This document shows, piece by piece, positions 51,750-61,504 of a stretch of DNA of 64,000 nucleotides. Location of the stretch: contig OZ253664.1 in NCBI GenBank assembly GCA_965263195.1, forward strand, positions 1,763,949 through 1,827,948, written 5' to 3'. Source of the stretch: Vicinamibacterales bacterium. Lineage in GTDB: Bacteria; Acidobacteriota; Vicinamibacteria; Vicinamibacterales; UBA8438. Below the pieces are notes generated by a model. That model searched no databases. It had not been told where the DNA came from and was given only the letters and a program-made list of their open reading frames with translations. The position numbers and the translations under genes are program-made. The stretch's first letter is position 1, and each line of letters starts with the position of its first letter.

Positions 51750-54209
51750 ATGCACGAAAGCACGATCCGGTCGCTCGAGTTCGACCGGATCGTCGAAGTC
51801 GTCCGCAGCTTCGCTCTGACGCCGCTCGGTTCGGCGCGGCTGGCCAGGCTCGAGCCGCAAGCCGACATCCACAGCGCGCAGGCCGCGCTGGCCGCCACCA
51901 CCGAGTGCATCGGGTACGTCGAATCGAACGGCCCGATCGCGCTCGAGGCCCCCGCGGACCTCGACCGGATCCTGACGGGCCTGGCGGTCGAGGGGCTGCC
52001 GCTCGAAGCGGCTCAACTGCGCGGACTCGCCAGCTTCCTGGCGTCCATCGAGGCCGTCCGGCGCGCGGTCGGCGAAGCGGGCGCCGGACCGTTCCCGCTG
52101 CTGGAGGAGGCTCTCGAAGGCTGCCGTTCGTTCACCCGCGAAATTTCGGACATCCGGACCCGGATCGACGACGCCGGCGAGGTCGTGGACGAGGCTTCAG
52201 CCGAGTTGCGCTCCCTGCGCGAGCAGCTGCGCCGTCAGGCAGGCCGCCTGCGGAGAACACTCGACTCCTATCTGCGCGGCAAGACCACCGCCCGCTATCT
52301 CCAGGATCAGGTCGTGATGGAACGCGCCGGGCGCTGCGTACTGTTGGTCAGGGCCGAGCACCGCGGCGCCATCCCGGGCATCGTCCACGGCAACTCCGGT
52401 AGCGGGGCGAGCCTGTTCCTCGAGCCGCTCAGCACGGTGGACGTCAACAACGAGATCGTCACCCTGCGCGAGCGCGAGGCGGCGGAGGTCCAGCGGATTC
52501 TGGTCGAGCTGGCGAATGCCCTGCGCAAGCGGGCGGCCGACCTCCAACTGACGCTGGAAGCCGCCGCCGGGATCGACGCGCTGCAGGCGCGGGCGGCGTT
52601 CGCGCGGCTCTGCGGCGGCTGCGCCCCGGAGCTGGTCTCGACACCGCACCTGGAGCTGCTGGATGCGCGGCACCCGCTGCTGATCCCGGCCGTGCGGCGC
52701 CGGCTCGGCGCCGGGGATCCGGAAACGGACGCACCGCCCGTTCCGGTCGAGATACGGATCGTCCCACCGCAGTCGGTGCTCGTGATCACCGGTCCCAACA
52801 CCGGCGGCAAGACCGTGGCGCTGAAGACCGCCGGGCTGCTGGCGATGATGGCGCAGGCCGGTCTGTACGTGCCGGCGGCGCCCGGTTCGCGGGTCACGGC
52901 CTTCCGCACAGTGTTCGCCGACATCGGGGACGAGCAGTCGATCACCGCCAGCGTCTCGACCTTCTCCGGCCATATCCGCAACGTGGTCGCCATGGACCAG
53001 CAGCTGCAATTGCCGGCGCTCGTGCTGCTCGACGAGGTGGGCGGAGGCACGGACCCGCTCGAAGGCGGCGCGCTCGGTGCGTCGCTCGTCGACCATTTCC
53101 GCCAGCGCGGCGCCGTCGTCGTAGCGACCACGCACGACGACATGCTCAAGACGTACGCGGCGACCACCAGCACGGTGACATGCGCCGGCTTCGGCTTCGA
53201 TGCGGAGACGTACGCGCCGAACTACCAGTTGACCTACGGCACGCCGGGACGCAGCCTGGCCCTGGAGATCGCCGCCCGGCTCGGCGTCCCGCCGGCTGTC
53301 ATAGGAGCGGCGCAGCAGCGGCGCAGCAAGCGCGAGGCGCAGCTCGCCGAGCACCTCGCCAAAGTGGACAGCGACCTGCGTGCACTCACCAGGGAGCGGG
53401 AGCAGATCGCTGCGGAACGAAAGCGTCTGGCGGCTGACGGGGCGGCGCTCGAAGCAGCGCAACGGGAGCTGCGCGCGCGCGGCCGGGAGCTGCGGCAACG
53501 CGCCGGCGGCGCCATCGACGACCGTGTGCGCGAGGCCCGCAAGGAGATTGATGCCATTGTCGGGGCGCTGCGGTCGCGGGCGGCCGAGATGGAGCGCGCC
53601 GCCGCCGGGCGGGTCGCCGCCGGCGCGGCGGCGTTGACGACGGGCGATGCGGGCGCCGCGCGCGCCTCCGCGCAGGCCGCGATTGCCTCTGTCGCAACGG
53701 CGACACGCAGCACCGCCGGCGAAGCGGCGGCGCCTCCGCCGCCGGAGCGCCCGCGCCGGAAGGCGGCGCTGCGCGTGGGATCGACCGTCAGCGTGGCCGG
53801 ACTGGGCCTCCGCGGCCAGTTGCGGGCGTTGTATCAGACCGAGGCGGAGGTGGATGTGCGCAACAAGCGGCTGCGCGTCCCGCTCTCCGACCTGCAGGCG
53901 GCGGATGGCGGCAAGGCCGCGGCCACCGGGCGCGTCACGACGAACACATCGGCCTCGTCCGCGCTGGCGGCGGAATTGAACGTCATCGGCTGCACGGCCG
54001 ACGAGGCGCTGGCACGGGCCGAGCGGTATCTCGATCAGGCGGTGCTGCACGAACAGCGACAAGTTCGGATCATCCACGGTCGCGGCTCCGGCGTACTGCA
54101 GCGGTCGATTGCCGGCCTGCTCGCGGGGCATCCACAAGTCGACCGTTTCGCGCCGGCGCAGCGGGAGCAGGGCGGTGACGGCGTCACGGTCATCGAGCTG
54201 AAGGACTAA
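51750..54209 (+). CDS. mutS2: endonuclease MutS2 (MutS domain V ATPase + C-terminal Smr)
   Basis: Walker A ITGPNTGGKTVALKT, LLDEVGGGTDP, and a C-terminal Smr domain (LNVIGCTADEAL..VRIIHGRGSGVLQ). Confidence 0.92.
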   Translation: MHESTIRSLEFDRIVEVVRSFALTPLGSARLARLEPQADIHSAQAALAATTECIGYVESNGPIALEAPADLDRILTGLAVEGLPLEAAQLRGLASFLASIEAVRRAVGEAGAGPFPLLEEALEGCRSFTREISDIRTRIDDAGEVVDEASAELRSLREQLRRQAGRLRRTLDSYLRGKTTARYLQDQVVMERAGRCVLLVRAEHRGAIPGIVHGNSGSGASLFLEPLSTVDVNNEIVTLREREAAEVQRILVELANALRKRAADLQLTLEAAAGIDALQARAAFARLCGGCAPELVSTPHLELLDARHPLLIPAVRRRLGAGDPETDAPPVPVEIRIVPPQSVLVITGPNTGGKTVALKTAGLLAMMAQAGLYVPAAPGSRVTAFRTVFADIGDEQSITASVSTFSGHIRNVVAMDQQLQLPALVLLDEVGGGTDPLEGGALGASLVDHFRQRGAVVVATTHDDMLKTYAATTSTVTCAGFGFDAETYAPNYQLTYGTPGRSLALEIAARLGVPPAVIGAAQQRRSKREAQLAEHLAKVDSDLRALTREREQIAAERKRLAADGAALEAAQRELRARGRELRQRAGGAIDDRVREARKEIDAIVGALRSRAAEMERAAAGRVAAGAAALTTGDAGAARASAQAAIASVATATRSTAGEAAAPPPPERPRRKAALRVGSTVSVAGLGLRGQLRALYQTEAEVDVRNKRLRVPLSDLQAADGGKAAATGRVTTNTSASSALAAELNVIGCTADEALARAERYLDQAVLHEQRQVRIIHGRGSGVLQRSIAGLLAGHPQVDRFAPAQREQGGDGVTVIELKD

Positions 54210-56015
54210 ATGGGACGTTTTCCGCCGCACTTCATCGACGATCTCAAGGCGCACGCCGACATCGTCCAGGTCGTGCAGGACGTCGTCCCGCTGAAGAAGG
54301 CCGGCAGCACCTACAAGGGCTTGTGCCCGTTCCACAACGAAAAGACACCCTCGTTCCATGTGAACCACGAGAAGGGGTTCTTTCACTGCTTCGGCTGCGG
54401 CACCGGCGGCGACGTCGTCAAGTTCGTCGAGCTGCAGGAGAAGCTCGGGTTTCCCGACGCGGTCCGACTCCTCGCCCAACGATTCGGCGTCCAGGTCCCC
54501 GAGTCCGGCGATCCCGAGCGCGACGCGGCGGCCGACGCCAGACGCGAGGCGCTGCTCAAGGTCCACAGCCTGGCCGCCGAGTTCTTCCAGCGGCAGCTGG
54601 GCGAGCCGCCCGGCCGCGGCGCCCGCGCGCACCTCGAGGCACGCGGCATCCGCCCCGAAACGATCGAACGACTTGGTCTCGGCTATGCTCCCTCACAGCG
54701 CGACAGCCTGCGGCGGCACTTGGGCGACGCCGGCCAGCCGCTCGACGTGCTGCTCGAAAGCGGTCTGGTCGTGGAGCGGGACGGGGGCCGCGTGGTGGAC
54801 CGTTTCCGGAATCGGCTGATGATTCCGATCTGCCGCGACAGCGGGTCCGTAGTGGCGTTCGGCGGGCGGGCGCTGGAGACCGGCCAGCAGCCGAAGTACA
54901 TCAACTCGCCGGAGTCGCCGCTGTATACGAAGAGCCGGACATTGTATGGTTTACATTTCACCAAGGCCGCAATCCGGCGATTGGGCTACGCCGTAATGGT
55001 AGAGGGGTACTTCGACTTCGCACAGATCGTGCAGGCGGGCGTGCAGCCGGCTGTGGCTTCGTGCGGCACCGCGGTTACCGCGCAACAGGCGCGCCTGCTG
55101 CGCCGGTTCGCGTCGAAGGTCATCGTCAGCTTCGACCCCGACACCGCCGGCCGGACCGCGGCCGCGCGCACGGGCGAGCTGCTGATCGGGGAAGAGCTGC
55201 AGGTCAACATCGCGACGCTGCCGGCGGGAGAAGATCCCGACACCTGCGTGCGCCGGCACGGCGTTGCACGCTACGCCGAGGCCCTGCGCACGTCGCGGCC
55301 GTACCTGGATTACGTGCTCGACGACGCGGCGGAGGGACGCGACCTCTCGCGCAATGCGCACCGCAGGGCGTTCCTGTCCGATATGCTGGCAGTGGCCCGC
55401 AGCATTCCGAACAGCGCGGAGCGGGAAGAATTCGCCGATAGAGTGATGCACAAGGCCGAGGTCAAATCGGAAACTGTTCGATCCGATTTTCTGCGCGCTG
55501 CTGTCGCGCGGCAGACCTCCCTCGGCGCCGCCACTACTGTATCGGTCGGGCACGCAGTCACGACCGTCGAGAAGGACCTGCTCTGGGCCACGATGAACAA
55601 CACGCGTGTGGCGCTGGACGCGCTAAAGGACGCGGAACCGGCGGACTTCGAAGGGCTTGCGACGGAGTCGATCCTGCGGATCGCCCGGACGCTCGTCGAG
55701 TGGCCCGCCGAGACGGTGCCGCAGGCGCTGCTGGAGCGCGTGAGCAGCGAAGACGCCGCAGTGGCGGAGGGTATCGCAAGAGAGTCGCGGAAGCCGGCGG
55801 ACGCCGGTGACTGCGTGCTGGAAATGCAGCGGTGGCGGCTCGAGCGGCAACGCGTCACGCTGCAGGACGAGATCGCGCGGCGGCAGCAGATCGACTCCGA
55901 CGATGCGGCCGCCGAGATCGATTCGCTCTTACGGCGCAAGATGGAATTGGTACAACGCATAGAGCAACTGGGAGGAAATGATTCGCGACAAGTTCCACGC
56001 GCGCCGAGCGTCTGA
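54210..56015 (+). CDS. dnaG: DNA primase
   Basis: Zinc ribbon [30 protein letters not shown] and TOPRIM ([16 protein letters not shown]). The ATG directly follows the mutS2 TAA. Confidence 0.95.
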
Positions 56016-56104: not shown

Positions 56105-57802
<1,698 letters not shown>

Positions 57803-57815
57803 CGCCAACGTGACG

Positions 57816-57891
57816 GGGCCCATAGCTCAGCGGTCAGAGCCGCCGGCTCATAACCGGCTTGTCCCAGGTTCGAATCCTGGTGGGCCCACCA
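57816..57891 (+). tRNA. tRNA with CAU anticodon (elongator tRNA-Met or lysidine-modified tRNA-Ile2), CCA encoded
   Basis: Hand-folded cloverleaf:
- Acceptor stem GGGCCCA/TGGGCCC.
- D-arm GCTC-AGCGGTCA-GAGC.
- Anticodon stem GCCGG/CCGGC with loop CTCATAA.
- T-arm CCAGG-TTCGAAT-CCTGG.
- Discriminator A plus CCA.
The G1-C72 pair and the lack of three G-C pairs at the base of the anticodon stem argue against an initiator. C4-G69 and C5-G68 resemble E. coli TilS determinants, so Ile2 is possible. Confidence 0.9.
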
Positions 57892-58053
57892 TTCGAAGCG
57901 CGTCACACCGGCCACGCCAGGCAGCTCCCCGAACCATGCTAGGATGTGGTCCCGTGCCGGCAATCTCGCGCCTGCTCTGGCGCCAAACCCCGCGTGCCGT
58001 CGCCTGCCGGACCACGCGCCGTCCGGCCGCCACACTGAAACCTCGAACTTTAA

Positions 58054-58078
58054 CGCCCCGCCCCGCGGGGCTTTTTTT
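58054..58078 (+). terminator. rho-independent terminator
   Basis: GCCCCGC-ccc-GCGGGGC forms a 7-bp all-G/C stem and is followed by T8. Confidence 0.8.
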
Positions 58079-58098
58079 TGCCCGGAAAGCAGCCGCCG

Positions 58099-58836
58099 AT
58101 GCTGGCCGACCTTGAACAACTGATCACGCTGCAGCACATCGAAGACGATGCGGCGGCTGCCGGCGCGAGGATTGAAGAGATCCCGGCCACCGTCGAAGCG
58201 CTGGGCGCGCGGCTCGAGGCGAGCACGGGGGAACTGGCGCTCGCGCAGCAGAATCTCGACGATTCGCGGACCGACCGGCGGGAGCTGGAAAAGAAACTCG
58301 CGGCGGTGCAGACCCGGCTGGACCGGTTCCGCGAGCAGTTGATGCAGGTCAAGACCAACAGGGAGTACCAGGCGATGCAGGTCGAGAGCGGCTCTGCCGA
58401 AGGTGAAATCCGCCGCCTGGAGGACGAGATCCTCGAACGGATGATCGAGGGGGACGACCTTACGGCGGAGGTCGAGAGCGCCAGCGGCCGTCTGGCCGCG
58501 GAAAAGAACTCGGTCGAGGCGGAACGCGCCGCCCTGGAACTCGAGCGGGATGCGTTGGAGAGCCGGCTCGGACACATGGTGGACGAGCGTGCAAAGCATG
58601 TCGGAACGCTGGCGCCGCATCTGCTGTCGCTCTTCGAGACTGTCGCGGATCGCCGCAATGGCACGGTCGTCGCCAGGGCGCGCGACGGGCGGTGCTCAGC
58701 CTGCCAGGTCCGGCTGCGGCCCCAGCTGTTCAACGACGTGCGAACAAACACCCGCCTGATCCGGTGCGAGAGCTGCCAGCGCGTCCTGTACTACGAGCAG
58801 GAGGCGGCCGCCGCGGAGGGCGGCACGGCGGAGTGA
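58099..58836 (+). CDS. COG1579-type coiled-coil + C4 zinc-ribbon protein
   Basis: A long coiled-coil N-terminal region is followed by a C-terminal [22 protein letters not shown] zinc ribbon. The ATG at 58099 is preferred, because the track start at 58078 lies in the terminator T-run. Confidence 0.8.
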
Positions 58837-59687
58837 GCGCCGGACCGATCGTCGCGTACATCGACGGCGGCTCGCGCGGCAATCCGGGCGTGGCCGGCTA
58901 CGGCGTGCGCATCGAGGCGGGCGACGGCTCGCTCATCGAGGAGTTGACCGGCGCCATCGGCATCGCCACGAACAACGTCGCGGAGTACCGCGGCCTGCTC
59001 GCCGCGCTCGCGTGGTTCGACCGCAACGGCTATCGCGACGCGATTGTCCGGTCGGACTCCGAGCTCCTTACCCGGCAGATGACCGGACAGTTCAAGGTCC
59101 GGCATCCGGGACTCAAGCCGCTGCACACCGAGGCGACGGCGATCGTCAGACGGCTTGGTCGCGTGCGGTTCGAGCACGTGCGCCGGTCGGCCAACACCGA
59201 GGCTGATCGGCTGGCGAATGCAGCCATGGACGGCGCCGCCGCGGGCGGCCGCGCGCAGGCGCCGCGTCCGGCACTGCCGCCCACCGCCGTCCACGCCGGG
59301 CACGGCGGCGGCGTCATCGGTATCGGCATCGACATCGAATCCATCGCGCGCGTCGGCGGGTTGCTCGAACGCTACGGCCCACGGTTCGTCGAGCGGGTCT
59401 TCACCGCCGACGAAGCCGCGTACAGCCTGCGCCGCGCACGGCCCGCGCAACATCTTGCCGCCCGTTTCGCCGCCAAGGAGGCGGCGATGAAGGCGCTGGG
59501 CACGGGTCATTCACGGGGCGTCGTCTGGCGCAGCATCGAAGTCGTGCGCGAAGCCGGCCCTCCCCGGTTGCGGCTCCATGGCGCGGCGGCTCGCCAATTC
59601 GACGCAATCGGCGCAACGCGTTCGCTGGTCGCCATCAGCCATTCGGGCGACTTCGCTCTGGCCCAGGTCATGTTGCTCGATCGCTGA
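58833..59687 (+). CDS. fusion protein: RNase HI-like domain + holo-[acyl-carrier-protein] synthase (AcpS)
   Basis: N-terminal half: VAYIDGGSRGNPGVAGYG..TNNVAEYRGLLAAL..VRSDSELLTRQM..ANTEADRLAN (the RNase H D-E-D-D pattern). C-terminal half: IGIGIDIESI..RVFTADE..LAARFAAKEAAMKALG..VAISHSGDFALAQVML (AcpS). This is a single ORF with no in-frame ATG/GTG/TTG at the domain junction. The GTG start overlaps the upstream TGA (GTGA). Confidence 0.8.
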   Translation: MSAGPIVAYIDGGSRGNPGVAGYGVRIEAGDGSLIEELTGAIGIATNNVAEYRGLLAALAWFDRNGYRDAIVRSDSELLTRQMTGQFKVRHPGLKPLHTEATAIVRRLGRVRFEHVRRSANTEADRLANAAMDGAAAGGRAQAPRPALPPTAVHAGHGGGVIGIGIDIESIARVGGLLERYGPRFVERVFTADEAAYSLRRARPAQHLAARFAAKEAAMKALGTGHSRGVVWRSIEVVREAGPPRLRLHGAAARQFDAIGATRSLVAISHSGDFALAQVMLLDR

Positions 59688-59857
59688 CGCCCGCGGTTTC
59701 CGGTCGGCATACCGCCGGCACCGGATCGCCGTCCCCACCACCCTCCAGGTCCCACAAGTCACGCCAGCTGTATCAGTTGCGCCAACACCGCAATTTCGAT
59801 GCGGACGGAATGCGGTTTGCTGTCCTCACTGGGACCGGTTAGTGGGAGGAGAGAAAG

Positions 59858-60175
59858 ATGACTGTGAAGATCGTGCCCAGCACCGCGGGGGCGCCGGCGG
59901 GCAAGCTGGCGGATGTCGAGTTGCACTTTTCCGAGGGAATCCTGGCGGGGCTGAAGCTCGTGGGATTTACGGTGTGGGACCGGCGCGACGACCGGGGACG
60001 CGGAGTGACCTTCCCCGCCCGGCAGTACCTTGTCAACGGCGAGCGGCGCCACTACGTGTTGCTCCGCGCGACCGCGGACGCCGGCACCACCGAGCCGCTC
60101 CGCGAGTTGATCCTCAGTACGTACAACGCCTACGAGCAGAGTGCTGCCGCGGGTGATGCCTCCGGTGAGCGCTGA
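59858..60175 (+). CDS. hypothetical protein, possibly SpoVG-like
   Basis: 105 aa with a strong SD (GGGAGGAG, 6-nt spacer). KLADVELHF..LKLVGFTVWD..GRGVTFPARQY..RHYVLLR..LRELILSTY loosely follows the SpoVG pattern. This is a family assignment by eye only. Confidence 0.45.
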   Translation: MTVKIVPSTAGAPAGKLADVELHFSEGILAGLKLVGFTVWDRRDDRGRGVTFPARQYLVNGERRHYVLLRATADAGTTEPLRELILSTYNAYEQSAAAGDASGER

Positions 60176-60196
60176 GGTCGGCGCCGCGCACCCGAG

Positions 60197-61504
60197 TCAG
60201 CGGCGGGCCCGGATGAGTGGCGCGTCGAGATCGATCGCGATATCGACGTCGAGCTGCTGGTCGCCCGCGTCGTAGGCGGCCGGGGCCTCCTCCGACAGAT
60301 ATTCTTCGGCGATTTCGGGGGCTGGTTCAGGGGCCGGTTCCGCAGCGGGTTCGGGGACCGGTTCAACGGCTACTTCCTCCTCGGGGTCGGGCCGTCGCCA
60401 ACCGGAGTACGCCTCCAGATCGACCGGCGTCTGCACCGTGCCGGAAACCTGCGCCGCAGCGTCGGCAGCGTCCTGGAAGCCCGTGGCGATTACCGTAATC
60501 TTGACCTCACCCTCCATGTGGGGGTCGACGACGGCCCCGAAAATGATATTGGCTTCCTCATCCGCCGCCTGTTGAATAATCGATACCGCCTCGCTCACCT
60601 CGATCATGGTTAGGTCGTCGCCGCCGGTGACGTTCACCAGCACGCCGCGCGCGCCGTCTACCGATACGTCTTCCAGCAGCGGGCTGGCAATGGCGCGCCT
60701 GGCGGCGTCGACGGCCCGCGTGTCGCCGCGCCCCACGCCGGTGCCCATGATGGCCAGGCCCATGCGCGACATGATGGTGGTGACGTCCGCGAAGTCGAGG
60801 TTGATGAGTCCGGGCACGAGGACGAGATCGGAGATCCCGTGAATCGCGTGGAGGAGCACCTCGTCCACCTTGGCGAACGCCTGCGTCAGGCTGGTTCTCC
60901 GATCGATCATCGACAGCACCCGCTCGTTCGGAATCGTGATCACCGTATCCACGCACTTGCGGAGATCTTCCAATCCGCGCGTCGCCTGCGCTGAGCGCTG
61001 CCTGCCTTCGAAGGCGAACGGCTTGGTCACGACCGCCACCGTCAGCGCCCCCAGCTCGGCGGCGAGATTGGCGATGACCGGCGCCGCGCCGGTGCCGGTG
61101 CCGCCGCCGAGCCCGGCGGTGACAAACACCATGTCGGCCCCGTCGAGCGCGGTAATCAGCTCCCCCGTGTCCTCCAGCGCCGCCCGGCGTCCGATGTTCG
61201 GATCGGCGCCGGCGCCGAGCCCCTTTGTCAGCTTGGCGCCGATCTGCAGCCGCACGGGCGCCTTGGTGCGCGCGAGCGCCTGCGTATCCGTGTTGGCCAC
61301 GATGAACTCGACGCCGTCGATGCCGGCGCCCACCATCTGCTCCACGGCATTGCCGCCGCCGCCGCCGACCCCGATGACCTTTATCCGCGCGCCCGGATCC
61401 GCGGCGGCATCCAGGGAAAGGCGCATGTCGTCACCGGCTGTCCAGTCCTCGTTGCGATCCCCGCTGATTCGATCCGTCATGTCTCGCTGCCCTCCTCCGA
61501 ACAT
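60197..61504 (-). CDS. ftsZ: cell division protein FtsZ
   Basis: [39 protein letters not shown], and a C-terminal peptide [11 protein letters not shown]. The start is uncertain: 61504, or the ATG at 61480, which has AGGAGG 10 nt upstream. Confidence 0.95.

Follow-up and report, generated by a model that had tools for sequence, protein, structure and literature searches.

The question raised by this locus is how ribonuclease HI (RNase HI) and holo-acyl carrier protein (ACP) synthase, AcpS, came to share one polypeptide, and whether their union is anything more than an accident of gene order. The gene concerned, rnhA-acpS, lies in a 64,000-nucleotide stretch of DNA (the window) from a Vicinamibacterales bacterium (assembly GCA_965263195.1, contig OZ253664.1, positions 1,763,949 to 1,827,948 of the forward strand). 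An earlier note, made from the letters of the window, had described a single 284-aa open reading frame (ORF) with a complete RNase HI domain, a linker of ~30 Ala/Pro/Gly-rich residues and a complete AcpS domain, and had placed it directly behind a COG1579 zinc-ribbon gene. The analysis presented here favors a genuine bifunctional gene of one lineage within the Vicinamibacterales (soil Acidobacteriota) that is vertically inherited and was born by the merger of neighboring genes, with domains that most likely work independently; we give this reading a probability of about 0.75.

The fusion ORF extends from GTG 58833 to TGA 59687 (284 codons plus stop) within an open frame spanning 58692-59687, and both of its halves scored above the family thresholds. 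The N-terminal half matched Pfam RVT_3 over residues 11-131 (3.4e-17; 62.9 bits against a gathering score of 21.6) and RNase_H over residues 6-131 (2.4e-6; 28.2 bits against 25.8). The C-terminal half matched Pfam ACPS over residues 163-254 (2.7e-18; 66.5 bits against 25), the NCBIfam equivalog-domain model TIGR00516 for acpS (82.1 bits, cutoff 59.8), and TIGR00556 (94.8 bits against 45.35). The motifs quoted in the earlier note are all present, and its description of two complete domains in one frame is borne out. The D-E-D-D residues of RNase H are D11, E51, D75, and D125, with D75 aligning with the position that carries an Asn substitution in 4H8K, a substrate complex of LC11-RNase H1. In the AcpS half, the conserved residues are the N-terminal D167 (the Mg2+ ligand of the family), K215 and E216 of the AAKEA helix, K220, and the C-terminal H270; corresponding residues of the B. 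subtilis enzyme include D8, E58, K62, and H105. The size of this half (residues 161-284) fits a single AcpS domain of ~120 aa. Judged by its profiles, its conserved residues, and, for the type 1 RNase H, its predicted fold, the protein is assigned to both the RNase HI and the AcpS families.

An AlphaFold2 model built from a 23-sequence alignment gave a mean predicted local distance difference test score (pLDDT) of 87.7. Values exceeded 90 in the AcpS domain and in most of the RNase HI domain and fell below 50 across residues 139-158, within a disordered linker that comprises residues 134-160 (~27 aa, close to the length first proposed). The predicted template modeling score (pTM) was 0.50, indicating that the RNase H and AcpS domains have no fixed orientation relative to each other. 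When the model was compared with the PDB using Foldseek (template modeling scores, TM-scores, normalized to the target), the N-terminal domain matched 3HST, the RNase H domain of Rv2228c, with 48% identity, a TM-score of 0.92, and a root-mean-square deviation of 1.3 Å, and a sequence search of the PDB agreed in returning 3HST at 5.2e-33. Other matches to this domain were LC11-RNase H1 (4H8K) and Halobacterium RNase H1 (4E19). The C-terminal domain matched AcpS from S. coelicolor (2JBZ/2WDY), E. coli (5VBX), and V. cholerae with TM-scores of 0.88-0.93, again in agreement with the PDB sequence search.

Residue conservation was computed for a set of 122 fusions. Carboxylates of the RNase H active site are almost invariant (E51 and D75 in 122/122, D11 and D125 in 121/122), and each of the five AcpS residues named above is present in 122/122. 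Linkers are 14-58 aa long and fall into 27 different lengths, all of them in frame; they show no sequence conservation and have a composition of A 19%, P 14%, and G 13%. Ratios of nonsynonymous to synonymous substitution rates (dN/dS), obtained by the Nei-Gojobori method for six pairs of loci, were 0.11-0.22 in the RNase H domain and 0.12-0.25 in the AcpS domain, compared to 0.54-1.08 in the linker, where all indels were in frame. Both domains are under purifying selection and the linker is near-neutral; from these sequence data, both halves look functional.

The same architecture is common in public data. A search of 5.8 billion proteins returned 3343 matches, and the architecture was examined in the best 120 of them; all 120 contain RVT_3, RNase_H, and ACPS, and domain mapping placed the halves in the same N-then-C order in every one. 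These proteins are 271-315 aa long and share 56-93% of residues with the window protein, and the architecture occupies at least 120 clusters at 90% identity. The earlier note would have yielded had this architecture proved both common and characterized; common it is, and no description of an RNase H-AcpS protein was found in the literature searched, so the note's statement that AcpS was undescribed as an RNase H fusion partner holds within that literature. In a 1.84-billion-protein library clustered at 50%, the family collapses to two full-length representatives, P0113 and P0145. Among the best 150 representatives (above ~115 bits), no independent RNase H-AcpS fusion was found beyond these two and the fragments P0147 and P0190, and the architecture therefore looks confined to one lineage, in which it is abundant. 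The remaining multi-stretch matches in that set are tandem RNase H repeats: 25 of the 150 carry two to three RNase H copies in proteins of 296-1267 aa without AcpS (e.g., P0149, P0159, and P0163), and P0166, P0173, and P0214 are further examples. The fusion recurs with identical synteny on multi-megabase long-read contigs from ENA and on short-read Logan contigs from different samples (loci L080-L086). The shared order is mutS2, dnaG, rpoD, COG1579, the fusion gene, and a small ORF, followed by ftsZ, ftsA, and ftsQ on the opposite strand. GTDB-representative carriers are titled as Vicinamibacterales, Vicinamibacteraceae, or Acidobacteria metagenome-assembled genomes (MAGs). No cultured host was found among the records and contigs retrieved, all of which are MAGs or metagenome assemblies.

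The origin of the fusion was approached by mapping the RNase H half, the AcpS half, and the COG1579 protein on 79 genome loci and the window. In the fused state (the window and L001-L008), a single frame has no stop between the halves. In the adjacent state (L014 and L015), the rnhA stop is followed 16 and 2 nt later, respectively, by the ATG of acpS itself, in another frame. In the split state (26 loci), stand-alone rnhA (~135-150 aa) and acpS (~125 aa) genes lie 0.8-5.7 kb apart, and a typical locus has between them an opposite-strand gene of ~283 aa that matches Cu-oxidase_4 (YfiH/PgeF; 4e-57). None of the fused or adjacent loci contains the divergent pgeF-acpS pair, and neither does any part of the 64-kb window, in which tblastn (E < 0.05) detected no second rnhA-like, acpS, or pgeF copy. 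The AcpS domain of the fusion is orthologous to the stand-alone acpS found at the same chromosomal position in sister lineages. Two neighbor-joining trees were constructed, one on a concatenation of RNase H, AcpS, and COG1579 and one on the COG1579 protein by itself, which lies outside the fusion. In each tree, the fused loci grouped as a single clade, with the adjacent loci as its sister and the split loci as the outgroup. Split and adjacent acpS genes encode an initial Met (MNILGIGLD, MQILGTGLD); in the fused genes, this residue is replaced (e.g., GVIGIGID).

The simplest history for these states has two steps. The ancestral order would have been COG1579, stand-alone rnhA, opposite-strand pgeF/YfiH, and stand-alone acpS. 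Loss of pgeF from the locus would have left rnhA and acpS 2-16 nt apart, and a single subsequent loss of the rnhA stop and the acpS start would have joined the frames, with the former rnhA tail and the intergenic spacer becoming the linker. The divergent pgeF/YfiH (-) and acpS (+) pair is widespread in Acidobacteriota (L009-L013, L016-L027, and others) and also occurs in the Terriglobia loci L055, L066, and L069-L079. In three Acidobacteriota loci (L028, L029, and L047), pgeF (-) and acpS (+) come directly after COG1579, and no rnhA is detectable between it and them, showing that the COG1579-acpS neighborhood exists even without an RNase H gene.

The COG1579 stop (TGA 58834-58836) overlaps the fusion start (GTG 58833-58835) in the sequence GTGA, as had been noted earlier. 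This 4-nt COG1579/rnhA overlap occurs in fused, adjacent, and split loci (other loci mostly have gaps of 0-40 nt), and the coupling of COG1579 to rnhA is consequently older than the fusion. Expression of the fusion gene would proceed from the COG1579 operon by translational coupling. The pairing is itself part of a known arrangement: Pereira et al. 2011 (PMC3372290) reported a dnaG-rpoD-tRNA-Met-DUF164(COG1579)-rnhA block in several phyla. Gene order in the window matches it exactly, with the zinc-ribbon gene directly 5' of rnhA, co-directional with it and downstream of dnaG, rpoD, and tRNA-Met; what distinguishes the window lineage is that its rnhA absorbed the next co-directional gene, acpS.

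The closest analogue of the fusion is mycobacterial RnhC/Rv2228c, an RNase HI-CobC protein of Actinobacteria (also MSMEG_4305). The parallel with Rv2228c drawn in the earlier note is supported by the match to 3HST described above, which places the N-terminal domains in the same subfamily. In both proteins, a variable linker of low complexity connects the RNase H domain to an unrelated enzyme, and both are encoded directly downstream of a COG1579 zinc-ribbon gene, as seen in L062 (Dactylosporangium). The mycobacterial counterpart of the window COG1579 protein is MSMEG_4306/Rv2229c; the MSMEG_4306 structure paper makes no mention of RNase H or of the neighboring gene. In NCBIfam, the N-terminal half (over residues 10-142) has its top match in PRK07238 ("bifunctional RNase H/acid phosphatase"), within the RNase H segment of that model. 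The window protein nevertheless falls outside the RnhC type (NF005567/PRK07238), scoring 144.5 bits against a cutoff of 326 and covering profile positions 8-141 of 378, and its C-terminal half is AcpS rather than His_Phos/CobC. The two fusions also occur in different phyla and differ in origin, that of the window having arisen independently through merger with the downstream acpS. In a study of RnhC, the MSMEG_4305 domains were functionally dissociated in vivo, the linker varied from 24 to 162 aa, and the authors concluded that the fusion had been fixed by drift (PMC7466739).

AcpS itself offers two further comparisons. Stand-alone AcpS from E. coli, B. subtilis, and S. coelicolor has the same fold in ~125 aa, with TM-scores in the range given above, and the fusion keeps the conserved Asp, the Lys-Glu pair of AAKEA, and the His; unlike these enzymes, the window domain has no start codon of its own and follows 160 residues of RNase H and linker. 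The alpha subunit of fungal type I fatty acid synthase likewise carries an AcpS-family domain C-terminal to another enzyme, and its structures 4V58, 7BC4, 2WAS, and 2WAT were among the PDB matches of the window protein. There, the partner is the substrate complex of the 4'-phosphopantetheinyl transferase (PPTase) itself and the coupling is functional, whereas here the partner is an unrelated nuclease.

On the basis of its assigned families, the product would combine a Mg2+-dependent type 1 RNase H, which would cut the RNA strand of RNA:DNA hybrids, with an AcpS that would transfer 4'-phosphopantetheine from coenzyme A to apo-ACP. By analogy with MSMEG_4305/RnhC, each domain most likely works on its own. 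AcpS enzymes are homotrimers with active sites at the subunit interfaces. The fusion product therefore probably forms a trimer that displays three RNase H domains. Three points weigh against a genuine merger of independent domains as the whole explanation. A second acpS, an Sfp-type PPTase, or additional RNases H may be encoded elsewhere in these genomes, which bears on the essentiality of each half. Retention of the fusion over deep divergence (pairwise identity down to 48%) is compatible with a selective advantage. Finally, the adjacent loci that represent the intermediate state were taken from MAGs, L014 with ambiguous bases and L015 from a long-read assembly, so frameshift errors there are conceivable, although in both of them acpS begins with the canonical Met that is missing from the fused genes.

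The second of these points leads to an alternative in which the fusion would have been kept since a tether between RNase HI and AcpS is useful, either with the AcpS trimer as a scaffold for a trivalent RNase H or for co-regulation of ACP activation and lipid synthesis with the replication and transcription functions of the dnaG-rpoD-COG1579 block. No reversal is seen in a clade with identities of only 48-62% among its members, and contact of an RNase H enzyme with a lipid pathway has a precedent: E. coli RNase HII (RnhB) is encoded in the lpx/fab operon with a reported LpxA interaction (PMC10326835). In addition, the CobC domain influenced Rv2228c RNase activity in vitro (PMC7466739). We nevertheless consider adaptive retention unlikely. 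The linker is disordered, unconserved, and nearly neutral, no interdomain interface is predicted, and there is no co-variation support. The partners were mere neighbors that came to lie side by side once the locus had lost another gene, and separate genes suffice in the sister and outgroup lineages. The functional dissociation reported for RnhC, the closest analogue, argues in the same direction. Slightly less credible again is the specific proposal that the AcpS trimer serves as a scaffold for trivalent RNase HI, or that RNase H modulates AcpS, physically tying ACP activation and lipid synthesis to R-loop or primer processing in the dnaG-rpoD-COG1579 operon, in a manner that would be analogous to the reported RnhB-LpxA interaction. 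The earlier note had spoken of an essential lipid enzyme tied to an RNA/DNA-hybrid nuclease. The two are indeed joined in one gene, but a merger of neighbors after pgeF loss points to an incidental fusion rather than a designed link.

It is also quite improbable that the fusion is nominal, with AcpS and RNase H released separately by proteolysis of the linker or by internal initiation. A long, exposed, and disordered linker would be accessible to proteases, and one in-frame ATG (M132) lies 32 codons 5' of the AcpS core. However, the linker has no conserved cleavage motif, and this ATG is the sole in-frame ATG, GTG, or TTG between residues 131 and 166, in keeping with the earlier remark that AcpS has no start codon nearby. 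M132 belongs to the conserved C-terminal "AMD" motif of RNase H, which is shared with stand-alone relatives and with Rv2228c; it is not preceded by a Shine-Dalgarno-like sequence, is absent in L007, and is Ile in 2/122 sequences. With the AcpS-initial Met replaced in all fused genes and no conserved in-frame internal start among those compared, internal translation initiation of AcpS appears unlikely from the sequences. Lastly, although high-GC genomes hold long open frames by chance and the related loci L014 and L015 have separate genes, a frameshift or missed stop introduced in the window by sequencing or assembly is effectively excluded by the same in-frame fusion in at least 120 clusters and in separate ENA long-read and Logan short-read assemblies, by the 27 linker lengths that all preserve the frame, and by the missing AcpS start codon of the fused genes.

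Within the literature searched, AcpS was undescribed as a fusion partner of RNase HI, and the dnaG-rpoD-tRNA-Met-COG1579-rnhA synteny was already known (PMC3372290). The loci form a clean natural series for the birth of a bifunctional gene, from split to adjacent to fused, with each state sampled in relatives. They also reveal that one RNase HI subfamily has on two occasions gained an unrelated C-terminal enzyme, with CobC as the partner in Actinobacteria and AcpS in Vicinamibacterales. Should acpS be single-copy in these organisms, an essential enzyme would be made only as a fusion, which would constrain assembly of the AcpS trimer. The fusion opens no long-standing question, and its useful outcomes are the stepwise series and a correction of annotation. 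Members are named "holo-ACP synthase [Acidobacteriota bacterium]" by NCBI (MCE2542659.1 and MCY4601115.1), and among the labels at JGI are "ribonuclease HI" and, for some entries, "probable phosphoglycerate mutase". The NCBI name and the mutase label are incomplete or wrong, and the latter appears to have been carried over from the RnhC family.

Table 1. Features of the rnhA-acpS locus and its surroundings, in window coordinates
Feature	Position	Strand	Basis
dnaG (DNA primase), context	54210..56015	+	ORF; L080 ortholog with Zn_ribbon_DnaG, DNAG_N, Toprim
rpoD (primary sigma-70 factor), context	56105..57802	+	ORF; L080 ortholog with Sigma70_r1_1 to Sigma70_r4
tRNA-Met (CAT)	57816..57891	+	ARAGORN; Rfam tRNA 69.5 bits
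Terminator-like GC hairpin and T8 run	58055..58079	+	~20 nt 5' of the COG1579 ATG; consensus match
COG1579/DUF164 gene (CT398-like coiled-coil hairpin and C4 zinc ribbon)	58099..58836	+	Pfam; L080 gene call
Fusion gene rnhA-acpS, 284 aa, GTG start, TGA stop	58833..59687	+	ORF, Pfam, NCBIfam, homologs
RNase HI domain, aa 6-133, RnhC/LC11/archaeal-like subgroup	58848..59231	+	Pfam, PDB 3HST, Foldseek
Disordered Ala/Pro/Gly-rich linker, aa 134-160 (~27 aa)	59232..59312	+	pLDDT, homolog comparison
AcpS (group I 4'-phosphopantetheinyl transferase) domain, aa 161-284	59313..59684	+	Pfam ACPS, TIGR00516, structure matches
Conserved ORF, 105 aa, no known family, downstream of acpS	59858..60175	+	ORF; orthologs in same position

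The gene block around the fusion extends further upstream than the described synteny. An 819-aa ORF at 51750-54209 (+), 5' of dnaG, has an L080 counterpart with MutS_V and Smr domains (MutS2-like), so the conserved block reaches to mutS2-dnaG-rpoD. The product of the COG1579 gene matched Pfam CT398_CC (1.6e-10) and Zn_ribbon_9 (1.7e-10), as well as NCBIfam Zn_ribbon_CdsZ (1.7e-18), the latter under the model cutoff, and is a homolog of FlgZ/HP0958, CdsZ/CT398, and MSMEG_4306/Rv2229c. The most likely start of this gene is ATG 58099 (245 aa, as in the relative L080) rather than TTG 58078. The terminator-like hairpin between tRNA-Met and this ATG has a stem at 58055-58071 (7 GC pairs and a 3-nt loop) and the tail TTTTTTTTGC. 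It leaves only ~20 nt for a promoter, and transcription of the COG1579 and fusion genes may therefore rely on an atypical promoter or on polymerase reading through from rpoD/tRNA-Met. A scan of 57700-60300 returned no sigma-70-like promoter site, which is uninformative for a high-GC acidobacterium, and an Rfam scan of the same interval found the tRNA and no other RNA family. The rpoD-COG1579 spacing is otherwise invariant but is disrupted in the close relative L086 by an insertion sequence-type transposase gene (899-1975; DDE_Tnp_1 and DUF772).

Downstream of the fusion, the 105-aa ORF was considered as a SpoVG-like protein because of a resemblance by eye; this assignment was dropped when searches of Pfam, NCBIfam, and PDB sequences offered no support, the ORF having no Pfam, NCBIfam, or meaningful PDB sequence match. 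Its orthologs are 102-113 aa long (L011 7777-8118, L080 7008-7325, L082 3989-4297, and L085 4088-4426) and lie directly 3' of acpS, whether fused or separate, and upstream of the convergent ftsZ.

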